Assembly: GCA_030682175.1 (NCBI GenBank) | Contig: JAUXOM010000031.1 | Span: forward strand, 1,112 to 65,111 | Direction of reading: 5' to 3' | Source of the DNA: Rhodocyclaceae bacterium | GTDB lineage: Bacteria; Pseudomonadota; Gammaproteobacteria; Burkholderiales; Rhodocyclaceae | DNA: 64,000 bases | Shown: positions 10,014 through 48,665 of the stretch, piece after piece | Layout of the letters: each line of letters begins with the position of its first letter | Numbering within the stretch: the first letter of the stretch is position 1 | Made by a program: the position numbers and the translations under genes | Notes under the pieces: generated by a model | Database searches by the model: none | The model's input: only the letters and a program-made list of their open reading frames with translations | What the model was told of the DNA's origin: nothing

Positions 10014-10496
10014 ATGCAAATCGATAAACATACAATAGTCACCCTGGCCTATAGCGTCACGGATAGCGAGGGCAATCTGATCGACGCGGGCGAGCATCCG
10101 CTGACCTATCTGCATGGCGGTTATGGCGGCATCTTCGAGAAAATCGAAGAGGAGCTTGTCGGCCAGGTGGCCGGTTTTCAGAAAGCAATCCGCCTGCAGC
10201 CCGAGGAAGCCTTCGGCGAATATGACGCCGAGCTCGTGATGATGGAACCGCGCGACCTGTTCCCGGAAGACATCGAGGTCGGCATGCAGTTCGAGCGCGC
10301 CTCCAGCAAGGAAGACGAAGACGGCATGCTGTTTACCATTACCGACATTGCTGAAGGCAAGGTGGTGGTCGATGGCAATCATCCGCTGGCCGGCATGGCA
10401 CTGGTGTTCTCCTGCACCGTCAGCGATGTGCGTGCTGCCACCCCCGAAGAAATCGAACATGGTCACGCGCACGGCGAGGGCGGGCATCTGCACTAA
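10014..10496 (+). CDS. slyD: FKBP-type peptidyl-prolyl isomerase SlyD
   Basis: YLHG, PEEAFGEYD, VDGNHPLAG, His-rich tail. Confidence 0.93.
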   Translation: MQIDKHTIVTLAYSVTDSEGNLIDAGEHPLTYLHGGYGGIFEKIEEELVGQVAGFQKAIRLQPEEAFGEYDAELVMMEPRDLFPEDIEVGMQFERASSKEDEDGMLFTITDIAEGKVVVDGNHPLAGMALVFSCTVSDVRAATPEEIEHGHAHGEGGHLH

Positions 10497-10502
10497 GTTG
10501 AG

Positions 10503-10710
10503 GCCCGCCCCTCCCATCTTCCCCGCGCGGGGAGGTGACTGTTGACTCGCTGCGCTCGTTTGTTACGGGGAGCGTTGTTTCGACTGGGAAGCGGATTGCG
10601 GCTGACGCCGCGTGCTGCCTTGCCTTGGCAGCTCTCAGGAGGCTATCTGCCTCATCTCTCCCGCGGGGAGAGAGGTCGGGAGAGCGGGATTGGCCCGGCG
10701 ACGAGGCTGC
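10503..10710 (+). repeat. Structured intergenic element, copy B
   Basis: Same conserved blocks as copy A, with an extra insertion inside the CTTGG...GGCCCGGCG loop. Confidence 0.8.
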
Positions 10711-10724
10711 CGGGGGGGCGTTAA

Positions 10725-11603
10725 TTGTCCGAGCGCTGGAGCGGGGTGTTGTGGATTGTCCTGTCGGCGGCGGGATTCGGCGCCATGGCGATCTTCGCCA
10801 AGCTGGCCTATCAGGACGGCGTTTCTCTTTCCACCATGTTGTTCCTGCGATTCAGCTTCGCCGGCCTGCTGCTGGCCGCCTGGGGCATGGCGCACGGCAT
10901 GCGTTGGCCACGCGGGCGCGATCTGCTCTGGCTGTTGGCCATGGGTGGCGTGGGCTATGTCGGGCAGGCCTATTGTTATTTCTCCGCCCTGCAACATGCC
11001 AGCGCCGGACTCGTGGCCCTGCTGCTTTACCTCTATCCGGCGATTGTCACGCTGTTGTCGGCGCTGGCTTTCGGCCGTCGCATCGGCCCCGCCCGCGGCT
11101 GGGCGGTGGCCGTGGCGCTGGCGGGCACGGCCTTGACGGTGGGTGGCGACCTGAACAGCGCGCCGCTGGGGATTGCGCTGGGCATCGGCGCCGCGCTGAT
11201 CTATTCGATCTACATCCTGGCTGGCGAGGGCGTGATGCGGCGGGTGCCGCCACTGCCGGCCGCGACGGTGGTGATGCTGGCCGCCGCTGCAGTGTATGGC
11301 GGGGCAGCGTTCAATGCCGGTCTGGCGCCGCCGGCAACATCCGCGGGGTGGCTGGCGGTGCTGGCGATTGCGATTTTCTCTACCCTGCTGGCGATCCTGG
11401 GTTTCCTCAAGGGCATGGAAAAACTCGGTGCCACCGATGCCTCGACGCTATCCACGCTGGAGCCGCTGATCACGATCGGCCTGGCCGCCATCGTGCTGGG
11501 CGAAGTGGTCAGCGAACTGCAACTGGTCGGCGGCGGATTGATACTGGCGGCGATCATCTTCCTCGCCCGGCACGGCGCGCGCCGGGTGGCTACTACAGAG
11601 TAA
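10725..11603 (+). CDS. DMT/EamA family transporter
   Basis: About 10 hydrophobic helices in two EamA repeats; TTG start. Confidence 0.88.
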   Translation: MSERWSGVLWIVLSAAGFGAMAIFAKLAYQDGVSLSTMLFLRFSFAGLLLAAWGMAHGMRWPRGRDLLWLLAMGGVGYVGQAYCYFSALQHASAGLVALLLYLYPAIVTLLSALAFGRRIGPARGWAVAVALAGTALTVGGDLNSAPLGIALGIGAALIYSIYILAGEGVMRRVPPLPAATVVMLAAAAVYGGAAFNAGLAPPATSAGWLAVLAIAIFSTLLAILGFLKGMEKLGATDASTLSTLEPLITIGLAAIVLGEVVSELQLVGGGLILAAIIFLARHGARRVATTE

Positions 11604-20241: not shown

Positions 20242-22707
20242 ATGAAAAGCCAGACCCACTGGTGGCATGGCCTGCTTGCGCGCAGCCTGATGGCGGTAGT
20301 GGGCATCGCCTTGTTGATGGGGGGCGCCTCCAGCGTATTGGTGAGCCGGGTCGCCGGAGAGCGCGCCTACGAGCAGGCCATGGTCAAACTGGACGAATTG
20401 CTCGACACCGTCGAGAGCACGGCCACCATTGCCGCTTTTGTTGGCGACGAACAGTTGGCGAAAGAGCTTGCGCAAGGCCTGATGCGCAATAGCGAGGTGT
20501 TGCGGGTAACAATACGCGGCAATGAACATGGTAATGAGCGCGAGTTGGCGCGCGCGGAACGGGCACCACCAAGCCCCGCTGTGAACGAAGGAAGTCCCCG
20601 CGGGACTGGCGGGATGAAGGATCCCGCAACGGGTGCGGAGAGCAACAGGACACTGATTCCATCCGTCAAACGCCAGTTGTATTCACCCTTTACCCCGCAC
20701 GAAGCCGTCGGCGAGATCCGTCTCGATGCGGATCAGGATGTCATCGATGCGCGCATGGCGAACGACGCCCGCTTCATCAGCCTGCTGCTGGCGGGTCAAT
20801 TGGCCCTGGTGATTGCCGCAGCGGCAGCCGCAATGCTGTTTCTGGTGGTGCGGCCAATCAAGGCAACCTCCGACCGCCTGCATCGCCTTGATGCCGCCAA
20901 GGGGGAGCGTCTTGCCGTGCCGGAAAGCCATGCACGCTCGGAACTGGGCCGCCTGGTCGAGGACATCAATAATCTCACGGCGCGACTGGTGGCAACCATC
21001 GGCATCGAGAGCGACCTGCTCCGTCAGCAGGTGATCGACCAGCGCAAATATCAGGATCTTTTCGAAAATGCGGCCTTTGGCATCTTTGTCGCCGATCATG
21101 CCGGACGTCTCGAGTCATTCAACCTTGCCTATGCATCATTGACCTGGCTGTCCCGGCGCAAGGAAGCCGTTGGCCGCTGGTTGACCGAAGCCGGTTGGGC
21201 AAACCCCGAACAACTGCTGGCCCTGTTGCGCAACAGCCTGAATGCGGCCGATAACCAGGCGTTGGAGGAAGACTTCCTGCTCATCGGCCAGCGGAAGGAT
21301 GAGCGCTGGCTGCATGTCGCCGTGACACCGCTGGGCAACGGCAGCGTGCAGGGCATCGTTACCGATGTGACGCAGCGCCGCAGCGAGGAAATCTCGGCCC
21401 GCCAGCTTGCCGTAACCGACGCCTTGACCGGGTTTGCCAATCGCTCCGGCCTGCAAAATGCCCTGTCCGGCATCGGTCCGGACACGCCGCCATTTGCCCT
21501 GGTGATGATCGATCTGGATGGCTTCAGGCGCATCAATGACGCCATGGGGTTTCAGGTGGGCGACCAGTTGCTGATGATGGTGGCGGCACGCATCCGCAAG
21601 CTGCTCGAAGACGGGGATCGGGCGGCGCGGGTTGGTGGCGATGAGTTTGCGCTGGTGCTCGCCGGTGAGCGCGGCAGCGCCGCGATCGATCTACGGGTTG
21701 GCCAACTGCTGCAGTTGATCGGGCAAGCTTATGACGTGAATATATCCGGCGGTCGCGAGGAGATCGACATTTCGGCAAGCGCCGGCATCGCCTTTTTCCC
21801 GAGCGACGGTGCCGATCTGCACGAACTCCTGCGCAGCACCGAACTCGCATTGAACAGCGTCCAGGCCAGCGGTGGGCGCAAATACTGTTATTTTGACCTT
21901 GCCCAGCAGACCGCCGTCGAGCATCGTCGCCGGCTGGAGGACGACCTGCGTCACGCGCTGGATGGCGGAGAGCTGCATCTGGTCTTCCAGCCGGTCGTCG
22001 ATCTCGCCAGCGGCCAACCGGTGGGCGCCGAAGCCTTGCTGCGCTGGTCGCATCCGGTGCGCGGCCTGGTTTCACCGGAAGTCTTCATCCCGCTTGCCGA
22101 GGATCTCGGTCTGATCGGCGAGATCGGCCTGATGGTACTTGACGAGGCCTGCCGGCAGGTGGCCGCCTGGCGCAAGGCCGGGCTCGATTTGTCTGTATCG
22201 GTCAACGTCTCGGTGCGGCAGATTCCGGAAGACCTGCCACCCTTGACCGTGGCCACCATGCTCAAGCAGCATGGTTTGCCGCCCACGGCGGTTGCCATCG
22301 AGATCACCGAGGGGGTGCTGATGAACAACGTTGCGGTGGCGCAAAGCTGGATCGAATACCTGCGTGCCGACGGCATGCGGGTTTATCTGGATGACTTCGG
22401 TACCGGGTATTCATCATTGTCATATCTGAAGCGCTTTGCGCTGGACACCGTGAAGATCGACAAGTCTTTCGTTCGCGACATGAGCGAGGACAACAATGAC
22501 CGCGCCCTGGTCGATGCGATTGTCACGATGGCGCGAAGTCTTGGCCTGCAGGTCATCGCCGAGGGCATCGAAACCCAGGCGCAGCTCGACATACTGCGCC
22601 AGATGGGTTGCGGCTACGGGCAAGGTTACTTCTTCTCGAAACCCGTGAAAGCCGATGAGTTCGTCACGGCCATTGCGAAAATCAGCGCCGTAGCAGCGCG
22701 CGGCTGA
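20242..22707 (+). CDS. Membrane sensor with HAMP-PAS-GGDEF-EAL domains
   Basis: Two TMs, HAMP-like ELGRL, GGDEF, EALLRW, DDFGTGYSSLSYL. Confidence 0.92.
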   Translation: MKSQTHWWHGLLARSLMAVVGIALLMGGASSVLVSRVAGERAYEQAMVKLDELLDTVESTATIAAFVGDEQLAKELAQGLMRNSEVLRVTIRGNEHGNERELARAERAPPSPAVNEGSPRGTGGMKDPATGAESNRTLIPSVKRQLYSPFTPHEAVGEIRLDADQDVIDARMANDARFISLLLAGQLALVIAAAAAAMLFLVVRPIKATSDRLHRLDAAKGERLAVPESHARSELGRLVEDINNLTARLVATIGIESDLLRQQVIDQRKYQDLFENAAFGIFVADHAGRLESFNLAYASLTWLSRRKEAVGRWLTEAGWANPEQLLALLRNSLNAADNQALEEDFLLIGQRKDERWLHVAVTPLGNGSVQGIVTDVTQRRSEEISARQLAVTDALTGFANRSGLQNALSGIGPDTPPFALVMIDLDGFRRINDAMGFQVGDQLLMMVAARIRKLLEDGDRAARVGGDEFALVLAGERGSAAIDLRVGQLLQLIGQAYDVNISGGREEIDISASAGIAFFPSDGADLHELLRSTELALNSVQASGGRKYCYFDLAQQTAVEHRRRLEDDLRHALDGGELHLVFQPVVDLASGQPVGAEALLRWSHPVRGLVSPEVFIPLAEDLGLIGEIGLMVLDEACRQVAAWRKAGLDLSVSVNVSVRQIPEDLPPLTVATMLKQHGLPPTAVAIEITEGVLMNNVAVAQSWIEYLRADGMRVYLDDFGTGYSSLSYLKRFALDTVKIDKSFVRDMSEDNNDRALVDAIVTMARSLGLQVIAEGIETQAQLDILRQMGCGYGQGYFFSKPVKADEFVTAIAKISAVAARG
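20571..20640 (+). repeat. Degenerate core motif with 24-nt and 21-nt inserts inside the EAL gene
   Basis: [TGAACGAAGGAAGTCCCCGCGGGA]CTGGCGGGA[TGAAGGATCCCGCAACGGGTG]CGGAG; left arm poorly conserved. Confidence 0.7.
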
Positions 22708-39002: not shown

Positions 39003-40163
39003 ATGAAAATCATATCCGCCATCCTGCGTACCACGCCCTTGCTGGCTGCCAGCCTGCTGGTATTGACTGCCTGCAGCGGCAACATCCTGCCCGAGTCGAA
39101 AAAAATCGAATACAAGTCCGCGGGCAATCAGCGCCTGCCGTCGCTCGAGGTGCCACCCGACCTGACCCAGCCGTCGCGCGACGAGCGCTATGCCGTGCCG
39201 GACGTCACCCCGAAGGGCAGCGCCACTTACTCGGCTTACGCCGGCGAGCGGAGCGCTGCAACCACCGCATCATCCAGTCCCGTCGTCTTGCCCAGTGTCG
39301 ACAAGATGCGCATCGAACGTGCCGGTTCCCAGCGCTGGCTGGTGGTGTCCGGAACCCCCGATAACCTGTGGCCTTCGATCAAGGAGTTCTGGCAGGAAGC
39401 CGGCTTCATCGTCAACATCGAGCTGCCCGAGGCTGGCGTGCTGGAAACCGACTGGGCCGAGAACCGGGCGAAAATACCGCAGGACATCATCCGCTCGACC
39501 CTCGGCAAGGTGATCGATGGTTTGTATTCGACCGCGGAGCGCGACAAATTCCGCACCCGCCTCGAAAAGGGCGCCGAAACCGGTACCACCGAAATTTATA
39601 TCAGCCACCGCGGCATGTATGAGGTGTATGTCACCGAAGGCAAGGACCAGACCCGCTGGCAGCCGCGTCCCGCTGATCCAGACCTCGAGGCCGAGATGCT
39701 GCGGCGCCTGATGGTGCGTCTGGGTGCCGATGAAACACGTGCCAAAACGCAGATGGCCGCCGAACCGAAGCAGGAGCGTGCCAAGCTGACCCGTGCTGCC
39801 GATGGCGCGGGTACCTTGACCGTGCAGGAACCTTTCGACCGTGCCTGGCGGCGCGTCGGCCTGGCGCTTGACCGCGTCGGCTTTACCGTCGAAGACCGCG
39901 ACCGCACGCAGGGGCTGTATTTCGTCCGTTACGTCGACCCGGAAGCCGACCTGCGCAAGAAGGATGGCGACAAGGGCTGGCTGTCGAAGCTGGCCTTCTG
40001 GAAGAGCAACAAGATCGATGTCGATCCGAAGGCGCAATATCGCATCCAGGTTGTCAGCGCCGGCAGCGACAGCAATGTGCGCATCATGACCCGCGAAGGC
40101 GGCGTCGACACATCGGAAACCGCGCGGAAAATCCTCGGGCTGCTGTTTGAACAGTTGAAGTGA
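39003..40163 (+). CDS. bamC: Outer membrane assembly lipoprotein BamC
   Basis: Lipobox LTAC, LEVPPDL, ETDWAENRA; follows dapA. Confidence 0.9.
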   Translation: MKIISAILRTTPLLAASLLVLTACSGNILPESKKIEYKSAGNQRLPSLEVPPDLTQPSRDERYAVPDVTPKGSATYSAYAGERSAATTASSSPVVLPSVDKMRIERAGSQRWLVVSGTPDNLWPSIKEFWQEAGFIVNIELPEAGVLETDWAENRAKIPQDIIRSTLGKVIDGLYSTAERDKFRTRLEKGAETGTTEIYISHRGMYEVYVTEGKDQTRWQPRPADPDLEAEMLRRLMVRLGADETRAKTQMAAEPKQERAKLTRAADGAGTLTVQEPFDRAWRRVGLALDRVGFTVEDRDRTQGLYFVRYVDPEADLRKKDGDKGWLSKLAFWKSNKIDVDPKAQYRIQVVSAGSDSNVRIMTREGGVDTSETARKILGLLFEQLK

Positions 40164-40170
40164 TGCCGGG

Positions 40171-40935
40171 GTGATCCGCTTCGCCTCGCTCGGCAGCGGC
40201 AGCAAGGGCAACGCGCTGCTCGTCGAGTCCGGGCGTACCCGCGTGCTGGTCGATTGCGGTTTCGGCCAGCGCGAAATGGCGCGCCGGCTGGAACGACTGG
40301 GTATTGAGCCGGCATCCGTCGATGCCGTCCTGGTCACCCACGAACATGCCGATCATGTCGGCGGCGTGGCCCGTTGCGCCGCCCGCTTTGGCTGGACGGT
40401 GCATGCCAGCCATGGCACGACGGCAGCCGCACGGCAGCTTGCCGACCTTGCCGTGCGGCGCTTCGACAGCCATGCCAGCTTCCCCATCGGCGACATCGAG
40501 ATACACCCCTATCCCGTGCCGCACGACGCGCGCGAGCCGACGCAGTTTGTATTTTCCGACGGAGCAGCACGTCTCGGTCTGCTCACCGACGCCGGCATGA
40601 TCACCCCCCATATCGTCGCCATGCTGGCCAAGTGTGCGGCGCTGGTGCTCGAAGCCAACCATGACGCCGCAATGCTTGCCAATGGCCGCTATCCCCCGCC
40701 ACTGAAGCGGCGCATCGCCGGCGGCTTCGGCCATCTCGACAATGCCGCCGCGGCCGGCCTGTTGCGCACGCTGGGTGGCGGGCGGCTGCAGCATGTGGTG
40801 GCCGCCCATCTTTCCGCGGAAAACAATACGCCTGACCTGGCGCGAACCGCCTTCGCCACTGCGCTGGGCTGCAGCACCGAATGGATCGGCGTGGCCGACC
40901 AGGCCACCGGCTGCGGCTGGCGCGAACTGCGGTAA
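40171..40935 (+). CDS. MBL-fold metallo-hydrolase (YycJ-like)
   Basis: SLGSGSKGN, THEHADH, PHDAREP, EANHD, AHLSAENN. Confidence 0.92.
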   Translation: MIRFASLGSGSKGNALLVESGRTRVLVDCGFGQREMARRLERLGIEPASVDAVLVTHEHADHVGGVARCAARFGWTVHASHGTTAAARQLADLAVRRFDSHASFPIGDIEIHPYPVPHDAREPTQFVFSDGAARLGLLTDAGMITPHIVAMLAKCAALVLEANHDAAMLANGRYPPPLKRRIAGGFGHLDNAAAAGLLRTLGGGRLQHVVAAHLSAENNTPDLARTAFATALGCSTEWIGVADQATGCGWRELR

Positions 40936-40958
40936 AAGTCGGAGCTGGCGGGACGGCG
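40934..40958 (+). repeat. Core motif overlapping the stop codon
   Basis: AAAAGTCGGAGCTGGCGGGACGGCG. Confidence 0.85.
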
Positions 40959-41052
40959 CTGATGGTTTTTCTCGCAGAAAGAGCCACATCCGGCAAGCCA
41001 TCTGTCATGTAGTAAGGCGCTTAGGGGCCGAATTGACCCTTCCAGCCCCGGG

Positions 41053-41334
41053 GCACACGGCAGCATCAGTCCGCAATTGGCCGAGTGCACTGGCTTCACC
41101 GCCGAGGATGCAACAGTGATTAAGACTTGGCTGCCGAAATTGTTCGAAAATGGCGCATCCTCGGCGCGGCCTGATTGCAGTATGGAGGTCGTCAAGGTCG
41201 TCTGGTGGCAACATGACAGCAAAGCCGGCAAGTATTCTTCCGCCAAGGTGCATGGTAGTTTGGCCGTGGCACCTGATGGCTCCATTTCGTTGGCAGATAT
41301 TCGCGTTAGACCTGAAATCATCGAGGGATTTTGA
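41053..41334 (+). pseudogene. cas7: 3' fragment of type I-C CRISPR cas7 (Csd2)
   Basis: AHGSISPQLAECTGFTAEDA...LFENGASSARPDCSMEVVKVVWWQH.SK.GKYSSAKVH matches my recollection of the Csd2 C-terminus; no N-terminal two-thirds and no proper start. Confidence 0.8.
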
Positions 41335-41336
41335 AC

Positions 41337-41543
41337 ATGACCGAAATTCACTTCATCGTCGAAGAAGCGCCCGAAGGCGGTTTTACTGCCCGCGCCGTCG
41401 GGGAGGACATCTTTACCGAAGCAGATGATCTGCCCGGTCTGCATGCGCAGCTGCGTGACGCCGTGCGTTGTCATTTCGACGACCACAAGAAACCGAGCGT
41501 GATCCGGTTGCATATCACGCGAGAAGAGGCGCTGGCGGTATGA
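41337..41543 (+). CDS. hicB: HicB-like antitoxin (short, upstream of toxin)
   Basis: EIHFIVEEAPEGGFTARAVGEDIFTEADDL...LRDAVRCHF fits the HicB partial RNase H fold. Confidence 0.7.
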   Translation: MTEIHFIVEEAPEGGFTARAVGEDIFTEADDLPGLHAQLRDAVRCHFDDHKKPSVIRLHITREEALAV

Positions 41544-41782
41544 AGCTGCCGCGCGATCTGTCCGGACCGGACCTGATCCGGCTGTTGGCGAAACTGGGCT
41601 ATACCGCTACGCGACAGGTCGGCAGTTACGTCCGGCTGACGACACAGGTTCACGGCGAACATCACGTCACCATTCCCAATCATGATCCGCTGCGCATCTG
41701 CACGCTGGCATCGATTCTTGCGGTGGCTGCGTCCCACCATGGAATCAGTCGGGAAGAACTGCTGAACCGGTTGCTGGGCTGA
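41540..41782 (+). CDS. hicA: HicA family toxin, catalytic His apparently replaced by Tyr
   Basis: MKLPRDLSG..L..LGY..RQVGSYVRL..HHVTIPNHDPLR..TL; GSY instead of GSH. Confidence 0.8.
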   Translation: MKLPRDLSGPDLIRLLAKLGYTATRQVGSYVRLTTQVHGEHHVTIPNHDPLRICTLASILAVAASHHGISREELLNRLLG

Positions 41783-41916
41783 AGCGCTTGGTGTGACTGA
41801 AGTTCCCGACCCCGTTCCCGAGCCAGTGGAACTTCATGTACGCGGCATGGCAAATTTAAAGCGGTGAATTTCGAGTTCCCGTCTGTCTTGCACGGCGCGC
41901 GTCGGTTGTTGTAGAG

Positions 41917-41939
41917 AAAAGTCGGCGCTGGCTTTACGG
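41917..41939 (+). repeat. Core motif copy, 3' part degenerate
   Basis: AAAAGTCGGCGCTGGCTTTACGG. Confidence 0.8.
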
Positions 41940-42020
41940 TTTAACGGACTGCTGTCGTATGGCGGACGGCGTTCGGATCTGGCGTTTATAATCGCGCCCC
42001 TTTCTCGTCCGTTTGTCCCC

Positions 42021-43325
42021 ATGAATCCAGTCACCATCGAATCGCTTGACTACGAAGGGCATGGCGTCGCCCATGTCGAGGGCAAGGCCATCTTCATCGA
42101 TGGCGCGCTGCCAGGCGAACTCGTTACCTTTACTTCTTACCGCCGCAAGCCGAAGTTCGAGAGTGCGGGCGTCGATGCTGTTCTCAAGACGTCCAGTCAG
42201 AGGGTTACGCCGGCCTGCCCGCATTTTGGCGTGTGCGGCGGCTGCAGCATGCAGCATCTGGATGCGACGGCACAGGTGGCCGCCAAGCAGCGGGTGCTGG
42301 AAGATGCCTTCTGGCATCTGTCGCGATTGAGGCCCGCGACGATCCTGTCGCCGATCATCGGTCCCGCCTGGGGCTATCGTCGGCGTGCGCGGCTGACGGT
42401 GCGCAAGGTCGAGAAAAAGGGTTGCGTGCTGGTCGGTTTCCATGAAAAGCGGCGCAGTTTTGTGGCTGACATGGATTCCTGCGCCGTCCTGCCAGCGCCG
42501 ATTTCTTCCCTGTTGCCGAAAATGCGCGAACTGATTGCGGCCTTGTCGATCCCCGACCGCGTGCCACAAATCGAGGTGGCCGCCGGCGACATGCCGACGG
42601 TGCTGGTGCTGCGCATTCTGGAAGCAATCTCAAATGACGACGCGGTGCTGCTGCGCGAATTTGCCGACCGGCATGGTGTGACGATCTACCTGCAAACCAG
42701 CGGGCCGGAAAGCGCCACATTGTTCCATCCGCCCGATGCGCCGATGCCGGCCTATCACCTGCCCGAGTTCGGCGTCACCCTGCGTTTTCGGCCGACCGAT
42801 TTCACGCAGGTCAATCATGATGTGAATCGGGTGCTGGTGCGGCGGGCGCTGGGGCTGCTGGATATCCAGCCGGACGACCGGGTTGCCGACATGTTCTGCG
42901 GCCTCGGTAACTTCACCCTGCCGCTGGCGCGCTGGGGTGCCCGGGTGGTGGGTGTCGAGGGGAGTGCGCCTTTGCTGGAGCGGGCGAAGGAGAATGCGGT
43001 GTTCAATGGTCTGGCCGACCGCATCGAATACCACGTGGCCAACCTGTTCAAGGTGACGCCGGAAAGCCTGGCGGCCTGGGGCAGCTTCGACAAGATGCTG
43101 ATCGATCCGCCGCGCGACGGGGCAATGGAACTCATCAAGTCGCTGGGCGGCCCAGGTGAGGCTGCACCTTCACGGATCGTCTATGTCTCGTGCAGTCCCG
43201 CAACACTGGCACGCGATGCCGGCGTGCTGGTGCATGAAAAGGGCTACCGGCTGGTTGCGGCGGGGGTTGCCAACATGTTCCCGCATACCTCGCACGTCGA
43301 ATCGATCGCGCTGTTCGCGCGGTAA
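42021..43325 (+). CDS. rlmD: 23S rRNA m5U1939 methyltransferase
   Basis: TRAM domain, [43 protein letters not shown]. Confidence 0.95.
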
Positions 43326-43326
43326 A

Positions 43327-43731
43327 GACGCCCGCCCCCCTTTGTTTGGCTGCGCCGAATCCCTCGCTTCGCTCAGGACCGCCACTTCGTGGCGTCCTGC
43401 GGCCTGCGGCCTAGTGCCCCCTCGCGGGGGGTTCGATACAGATCGCTTTCGCTCACATATCACGGGGCGCTCTGATCAAATGTGCGTGCGGATTGCGGCA
43501 TTCTCCGCGTGCCGCGTTTGCTTGGGACGGCCCGGCGCAAACGCTGCGGTGTCTTTCACGGTCAAGACGCCCGCCCCCCTTCGCCCCCCTCGCGGGGGGT
43601 TCGATACAGATCGCTTGCGCTCCAATATCACGGGGCGCTACGATCAAGTGTGGTGCGGATTGCGGCATTCGCCGCGTGCCGCGTTTGCTTGGGACTGCCC
43701 GGCGCAAACGCTGCGGTGTCTTTCAGGTTAA
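43327..43731 (+). repeat. Two tandem structured elements, F1 (43327-43565) and F2 (43566-43731)
   Basis: Both begin GACGCCCGCCCCCCTT and end GCGGTGTCTTTCA; F2 lacks a ~73-nt internal module. Confidence 0.9.
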
Positions 43732-43758
43732 GCGAGCTACTCCACAGCCTAGCCAGGG

Positions 43759-48568: not shown

Positions 48569-48660
48569 CGCCGTACCCCATGTTGGCGGCGCACCGGCTG
48601 CGCCGTACCCCATGCGGGGCATTTCATCCCACCAGCGCCGTCCCGCCAGCGCCGACTTTT
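48569..48660 (-). repeat. Core motif plus duplicated half-core with 21-nt insert and a truncated insert
   Basis: Reverse complement AAAAGTCGGCGCTGGCGGGACGGCG-CTGGTGGGA[TGAAATGCCCCGCATGGGGTA]CGGCG. Confidence 0.85.
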
Positions 48661-48665
48661 ATTCA

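Follow-up and report, generated by a model that had tools for sequence, protein, structure and literature searches.

The 64,000-nucleotide stretch of DNA analysed here (the window) very likely carries the non-functional deletion scar of a type I-C CRISPR-Cas island, in which a hicBA pair formerly occupied the gap between cas7 and cas4. The preliminary description of this DNA had already proposed the relic of a lost or captured CRISPR-Cas locus with hicBA downstream of cas7, and this proposal is now supported by an intact island that lies at the same site in a genome of the same genus (G015) and contains a hicBA with 96% nucleotide identity. Loss and capture do not fare equally well, as island-specific sequence has been kept at four separate places and in the right order, which favours a loss in situ and makes a capture the less likely part of that proposal. 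Taken individually, the components belong to known kinds, namely pseudogenes of cas genes and toxin-antitoxin modules carried as cargo by cas operons, and no new mechanism is involved, but the comparative series is unusually complete. Within one genus, a single site is found in four states, i.e. empty, occupied by an intact I-C system with hicBA, occupied by an island with a broken hicBA, and, in two cases, decayed with hicBA retained. With a third decayed locus elsewhere in another genome, this series is a natural experiment on the loss of CRISPR-Cas systems.

The cas7 remnant in the window is a non-functional piece of a type I-C cas7 and by itself an ordinary pseudogene. The plus-strand translation of 41053-41331 comprises 93 codons that match type I-C Cas7/Csd2 profiles, and the DNA homology to the intact cas7 of locus L002, from a Sulfuritalea sp. 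MAG, covers positions 41057-41334 with 81% identity at the nucleotide as well as at the amino acid level. The stub (41057-41334, plus strand) thus consists of about the last 93 codons and the TGA stop. It is recognized by PF05107 (Cas_Cas7; E 7.7e-15, 55.6 bits with a cut-off of 33.2, profile positions 160-232 of 249), by PADLOC Cas7c (E 1e-24), and by the NCBIfam model TIGR02589 (cas_Csd2; E 4.3e-24), in which case the 85 bits fall short of the cut-off of 182 set for full-length proteins, the stub spanning only positions 181-251 of 284. These searches with Cas7/Csd2 models, all of them significant (E 7.7e-15 to 1e-24), confirm what the preliminary description had read at 41053-41334, a Csd2-like 3' fragment of about 93 codons without a start. 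The coverage is limited to the C-terminal third of the family, and the N-terminal two-thirds of a protein of about 280 amino acids are absent; in the reading frame, a stop occurs 37 codons before position 41053 and a credible start is missing.

Also the sequence of the remaining part has drifted. In an alignment with 81 homologous Cas7 C-termini, the stub deviates in 3 of the 38 columns that are conserved to at least 95%, whereas the homologues deviate in 2 at the most, with a median of 0. Two of the three motifs that had been suspected of drift are indeed altered at columns that are 100% invariant in the 81 homologues, which are FENGA (D34G, FENDAS to FENGAS) and RPDCSME (G42C, RPxGSM to RPDCSM), but the third, LAECTG, owes its difference to an R-to-C change in LAERTG, where the column is conserved to less than 90%. 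The stub therefore neither has the full length of a Cas7/Csd2 protein nor keeps the invariant residues of the family. Like the cas7 genes of the intact loci L002 and G015, it adjoins the upstream side of the cargo slot between cas7 and cas4, but unlike them it has no Cas5, Cas8c, Cas3 or crRNA partners. As it is truncated, mutated at two invariant residues and devoid of partners, it must be regarded as a pseudogene and not as a working Cas7, and as part of the whole scar reading it is very probable that the fragment can no longer be assembled into a Cascade and is subject to neutral drift.

The site of the former island is a short spacer between a gene for an MBL-fold hydrolase (40171-40935, plus strand; PF12706, E 5e-22) and an rlmD-like methyltransferase gene (42021-43325, plus strand, taken from the ORF listing and labelled solely by the appearance of its protein sequence). 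These two genes are the conserved left and right flanks, and in at least 20 of 37 congeners they are directly adjacent, the site being empty. In G024, the genome in which the empty spacer was read, it consists of a single copy of a motif (AAAAGTCGGCGCTGGCGGGACGGCG) that is followed by the rlmD promoter region. The homology between window and G024 stops at 40958 and resumes at 41981, and the window thus has a surplus of 1022 bases (40959-41980). A direct copy of the motif lies at either end of this block. The left copy (AAAAGTCGGAGCTGGCGGGACGGCG; 40934-40958, plus strand) is the final sequence in common with the empty site, and the right copy (AAAAGTCGGCGCTGGC ... GGACGGCG; 41917-41971, plus strand), which is split by an insert of about 31 nt, marks the right end of the former island. 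The motif of about 25 nt occurs in hundreds of copies per genome of the genus, is a place where assemblies break, and is found in the window also at 48629-48661.

In G015, the left flank of the window and hicBA lie 5.6 kb apart on one contig, and at the same site there is an intact island with the order cas3-cas5c-cas8c-cas7-hicB-hicA-cas4-cas1-cas2-array. Its Cas3 has HD and helicase domains, Cas5c (E 9e-58), Cas8c/Csd1 (E 1e-168), Cas7/Csd2 (E 1e-120), Cas4 (E 4e-35) and Cas1c (E 4e-146) were identified by their matches, hicB and hicA by their similarity to the window, and the likely Cas2 by 85% amino acid identity to the cas2 region of L002; the CRISPR array after cas2 comprises at least 7 repeats that end in ATTGAAAC. 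Also in G045 the island is at this site, as cas3 directly follows the MBL gene. In G047, a single contig contains the motif, hicB, hicA, a 155-nt piece of cas4, the 3' portion of an HTH gene, again the motif, and rlmD. This HTH gene is located beyond the array in G015, and the contiguity in G047 therefore joins the end of the G015 island to rlmD, which confirms the site. In G043, a cas7 stub of 42 amino acids, hicBA and a 3' stub of cas4 are found at another locus. The relics of G047 and G043 are independent decay products, and both have retained hicBA.

The comparison with G015 reveals a collinear order of matches with three gaps between them. The first match extends from 40101 to 41023 (G015 locus L090, 10023-9101; blastn, 91% identity) and ends 14 nt before the start of the G015 cas3. 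The last 65 nt of this region (40959-41023, plus strand), which are shared with G015 only and are there positioned just upstream of cas3, represent the left end of the former island. They are followed by a 33-nt filler at the left deletion junction (41024-41056), which matches neither the loci retrieved for comparison nor any other part of the own genome, and then by the cas7 stub. The second match (41332-41819) covers hicB, hicA and the first nine codons of cas4 with 96% identity; the cas4 part is a 5' stub at 41793-41819 (plus strand) that consists of the GTG start and eight further codons (VTEVPDPVP) and has 93% nucleotide identity to the start of the G015 cas4. This stub is fused to a 3' stub of cas2 (41818-41890, plus strand) that ranges from about codon 73 to the end of the gene and agrees with G015 cas2 in 24 of 27 nt. 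The DNA of this third match (41818-41874, cas2 from about codon 73) is 89% identical to G015, and the match on the protein level reaches 41890 (tblastn, residues 84-98, the last 15 of the protein; E 0.004). About 25 codons are kept, the translation of which begins with EPVELHVR, with a frameshift of 1 nt and a lost stop. The cas4/cas2 junction reads VTEVPDPVP/EPVELHVR and has a microhomology of at most 1-2 nt. As the right motif copy begins about 25 nt past the cas2 relic, leader, array and downstream cargo are gone. At least three deletions are implied by these alignments, each of which would have halted short of hicBA.

Nothing else of a type I-C system was detected in this genome. The window belongs to contig C41 of a 3.49-Mb assembly in 153 contigs that is 99.7% complete with an estimated contamination of 4.45%. 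The Csd2 model matched only the window fragment in the own genome, profile searches of it for Cas1 and Csd1 yielded no matches, and tblastn searches with Cas3, Cas5c, Cas8c, Cas4, Cas1 and Cas2 of a congener returned nothing beyond the relics of the window; besides the cas7 stub, the genome contains of the type I-C genes only the 9-codon stub of cas4 and the stub of cas2 with its about 25 codons. A scan of the whole 3.49 Mb for periodically spaced repeats and, as had been suggested in the preliminary description, for repeats of the I-C type revealed neither a CRISPR array nor an I-C repeat. The earlier statement that the window contains no array and no other cas gene is hence correct for the array, but not for the cas genes, of which the cas4 and cas2 stubs are present. 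A candidate for an orphan array on contig C3 (about 20300-20900) was rejected, as it turned out to be a coding Ala/Lys-rich repeat and not a CRISPR. This repeat is read on the minus strand, mimics the periodicity of CRISPR arrays and resembles the tail of a histone-H1-like or AlgP-like protein.

The cas7 stub and hicBA do not have the same closest relatives. The stub has no DNA alignment to the cas7 of G015, the protein identity is 30%, and about the same identity is found to all 11 Cas7s that were detected in the genus. Its nearest Cas7s are those of L002 (81% amino acid and nucleotide identity), of the metagenome contigs L143/L144 (70%) and of the Gallionella MAG L022 (61%). The similarity between window and G015 flips from unalignable to 96% exactly at the cas7 stop, where both have the junction TGA-AC-ATG. 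Between L002 and G015 (L090), Cas4, Cas1 and Cas2 are 73-85% identical, whereas Cas3 and Cas7 are only 33-38% identical, a contrast which indicates that interference and adaptation modules recombine at the seam formed by the cargo slot, and the succession of an L002-type cas7 and hicBA does exist, in L143/L144 and L022. As part of the scar reading, and with the same high probability, the ancestral island can thus be regarded as a mosaic, as judged from sequence comparison, with an interference module of the L002/L022/L143 lineage and a hicBA-plus-adaptation module of the G015 kind. What speaks against the scar reading is this low identity of the stub to the Cas7s detected in the genus, and that none of the genomes compared combines an L002-type cas7 with a hicBA of 96% identity.

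According to this reading, an I-C island with a motif copy at either end would once have separated the MBL-hydrolase gene from rlmD, where there is otherwise only a short spacer, and its order would have been cas3-cas5c-cas8c-cas7-hicB-hicA-cas4-cas1-cas2-leader-array. One deletion would have removed the region from cas3 through about codon 190 of cas7, a second the region from cas4 codon 10 through cas2 codon 73, and a third the leader and array together with the cargo downstream of them, and hicBA would have survived, flanked by the stubs of cas7, cas4 and cas2. The sparing of hicBA may be due to the fact that the loss of an active toxin-antitoxin pair kills the cell, and in this case only those deletions would have been recovered that stopped short of the pair. 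HicA would have been disabled later by H30Y, and the hicBA pair itself would now be decaying.

Alternatively, a piece of the type cas7'-hicBA-cas4'-cas2' that was already decayed may have been imported from another strain by recombination at the bounding motifs, and in this case a full island would never have existed here. The two direct motif copies at the ends of the 1-kb block would fit such an import, the lineage of the cas7 stub is not seen in the genus, and over 41000-42000 the GC content is only 0.54-0.60, compared with about 0.65 on either side, a dip that speaks for the scar reading as well. But beyond the motif, the 65 nt of 40959-41023 share 91% with the G015 island, which equals the identity of the neighbouring core gene and fits a vertical descent of the island at this site, and G047 and G045 hold island material at the same site. 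Moreover, the decay must have taken place somewhere also in the case of an import, which merely relocates the process. A capture is therefore improbable.

Even less probable, and clearly so, is a function of the cas7 remnant as a mini-protein, i.e. of a Cas7 C-terminal ORF (85-89 aa) that would serve hicBA as a third component or regulator, or as the source of its promoter. Gene callers predict an ORF of 89 aa (P0001), it ends 2 nt before the hicB start, and also G043 has retained a cas7 stub upstream of hicBA. The G043 stub, however, belongs to another Cas7 lineage and differs in length, and hicBA occurs without any stub in G047, G048, G010 and 19 order-level loci. The mutation of two residues that are invariant in 81 Cas7s argues against a function as well, and a search for a hicBA promoter inside the cas7 stub found no sigma-70-like site. 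The other short Cas7 fragments in databases are mostly on contigs below 3 kb and are likely cut genes; a stand-alone family of Cas7 C-terminal mini-proteins was considered and rejected, as almost all of the 69 short matches are on contigs of 0.5-3 kb. Many of these Cas7c fragments (P0004-P0027) have exactly 107 aa; they probably derive from genes truncated at the end of a contig, with a conserved internal Met taken as the start, and are a trap when "mini-Cas7" proteins are counted. That the contig is an assembly or binning artefact, joining reads from different organisms of the metagenome, can be practically dismissed. The assembly does consist of 153 contigs with 4.45% estimated contamination, and the block has a repeat motif at either end, but the flanking regions on the left and right share their synteny with more than 20 congeners, each junction can be matched to a specific homologue in G015 or G047, and the stub ORF was recorded on two contigs of up to 70 kb.

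The gene that starts 2 nt past the cas7 stop (41337-41543, plus strand) encodes a protein of 68 aa and shares an ATGA overlap with the hicA toxin gene (41540-41782, plus strand; 80 aa). HicA matches PF07927 (E 1.3e-9, 38.5 bits with a cut-off of 27) and PHROG 353, annotated as "toxin" (E 6e-7). The hicBA of the window has 96% nucleotide identity to that of G015, and the 68-aa partner is 99% identical to the G015 copy at the amino acid level. This partner has no match in Pfam, NCBIfam, PHROG, PADLOC or PDB, neither by sequence nor by profile; its best profile match is 2yzt, which is weak (E 0.23), and its AlphaFold model (pLDDT 55) is of too low confidence to be compared with known folds. There are 5589 homologues in the protein database, and in the loci examined the gene is always upstream of a HicA gene. 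Its size, position and constant pairing with HicA make the protein a candidate for a HicB-type antitoxin. Like in the type II HicA/HicB systems, for which HicAB of B. pseudomallei is an example (PMC3969222), there is thus a HicA_toxin protein (PF07927) with a small partner encoded by an overlapping gene, but in the window the partner comes first, has neither a DNA-binding domain nor a match to the HicB family, and HicA has a C-terminal extension of 30 aa and a Tyr in place of the His in the GSH motif. The extension of about 30 aa is conserved in the HicA family of the window, the partner of which lacks a DNA-binding domain. In this family, the autoregulatory DNA-binding part may be on the toxin.

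The HicA of the window carries H30Y (41627-41629; GSH to GSY) and G54C (41699-41701), and both positions are invariant in 9 homologues. In B. pseudomallei HicA, H24A and G22C abolish toxicity (PMC3969222). With two changes at invariant positions and the equivalents in B. pseudomallei being non-toxic, the toxin of the window is probably inactive, as far as can be judged by analogy, while the gene of the partner is intact.

In the genus, a hicB homologue of the window type is found in 8 of 37 other genomes. Three of these have an intact cas7-hicBA-cas4 arrangement (G015, G041, G014), two have hicBA between cas stubs (G047, G043), and two have hicBA without any cas trace (G048, G010). In G045, hicB and hicA are fused by an internal deletion and the operon is otherwise intact; the fusion (L142, G045:C159, 1492-1796) joins hicB residues 1-64 to hicA residues 41-80, which is the reverse of the pattern in the window. 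The Gallionella MAG L022, L143/L144 and genomes from several further genera of the order have cas7, hicBA and cas4 in succession as well. The suggested search for intact I-C loci with hicBA between cas7 and cas4 has thus proven fruitful (G015, G041, G014). In a sample of 400 genomes from the order, 32 other genomes have hicB, and cas genes lie next to it at about 10 of the 29 loci that were inspected; further contexts are restriction-modification genes and other toxin-antitoxin genes. Among the I-C loci of the genus (L123-L132), in those without hicBA the slot is filled by a Gp49/HI1420 pair, DUF433/DUF5615 pairs, a PIN gene or the gene of a YhcG nuclease, and in one genome by nothing. The gene of the YhcG PDDEXK nuclease is truncated in one genome of the genus, and also L002 carries YhcG in its slot (10279-11334). 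In L143 (4131-4727), two toxin-antitoxin pairs are arranged in tandem, and the cargo differs in almost every species.

In the literature searched, no description of hicBA in type I-C operons was found. It has been reported that vapBC is present in cas cassettes of Sulfolobales and that RelE/PIN toxins are encoded near type III loci (PMC3506569), and type I systems can be guarded by CreTA RNAs (PMC9458426, PMC10097628). The window likewise contains an addiction-type module in a cas locus, with the proposed effect that a loss of the locus is costly. CreTA repression requires Cascade, and CreTA therefore guards the cas genes, whereas the hicBA protein pair would guard only its own DNA. If hicBA protects only itself, the cas genes could be lost while the pair stayed, as in the window. 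No repeat-like element was seen beside hicBA, and the module, being a pair of proteins, is not counted among the CreTA-like guards.

An active pair would punish its own loss, and addiction would explain why three independent relics, those of the window, G047 and G043, have kept hicBA. It is conceivable, albeit rather doubtful, that this hicBA family is a protein addiction cassette specialised for the cas7-cas4 seam of I-C systems that shapes their decay, in that it permits the survival only of deletions ending at its borders and so outlasts the operon, and possibly also a homologous anchor through which an adaptation module exchanges one interference module for a divergent one (with Cas7s of only 30% identity). 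If so, the three relics would be independent footprints of post-segregational killing on a chromosome. However, addiction cannot account for the sparing of hicBA if H30Y preceded the deletions, and in G045 the cas genes are intact and hicBA is internally deleted, so that hicBA can be the first to break. This touches the question of whether a toxin-antitoxin cargo in the slot helps to maintain the operon or only itself, and the data favour the latter, unlike in the case of the Cascade-dependent CreTA.

Just downstream of rlmD, a 167-bp unit is repeated 1.9 times with 92% identity (43417-43732), and an ORF of the six-frame listing that spans the region (43156-43731) holds a repeated peptide.
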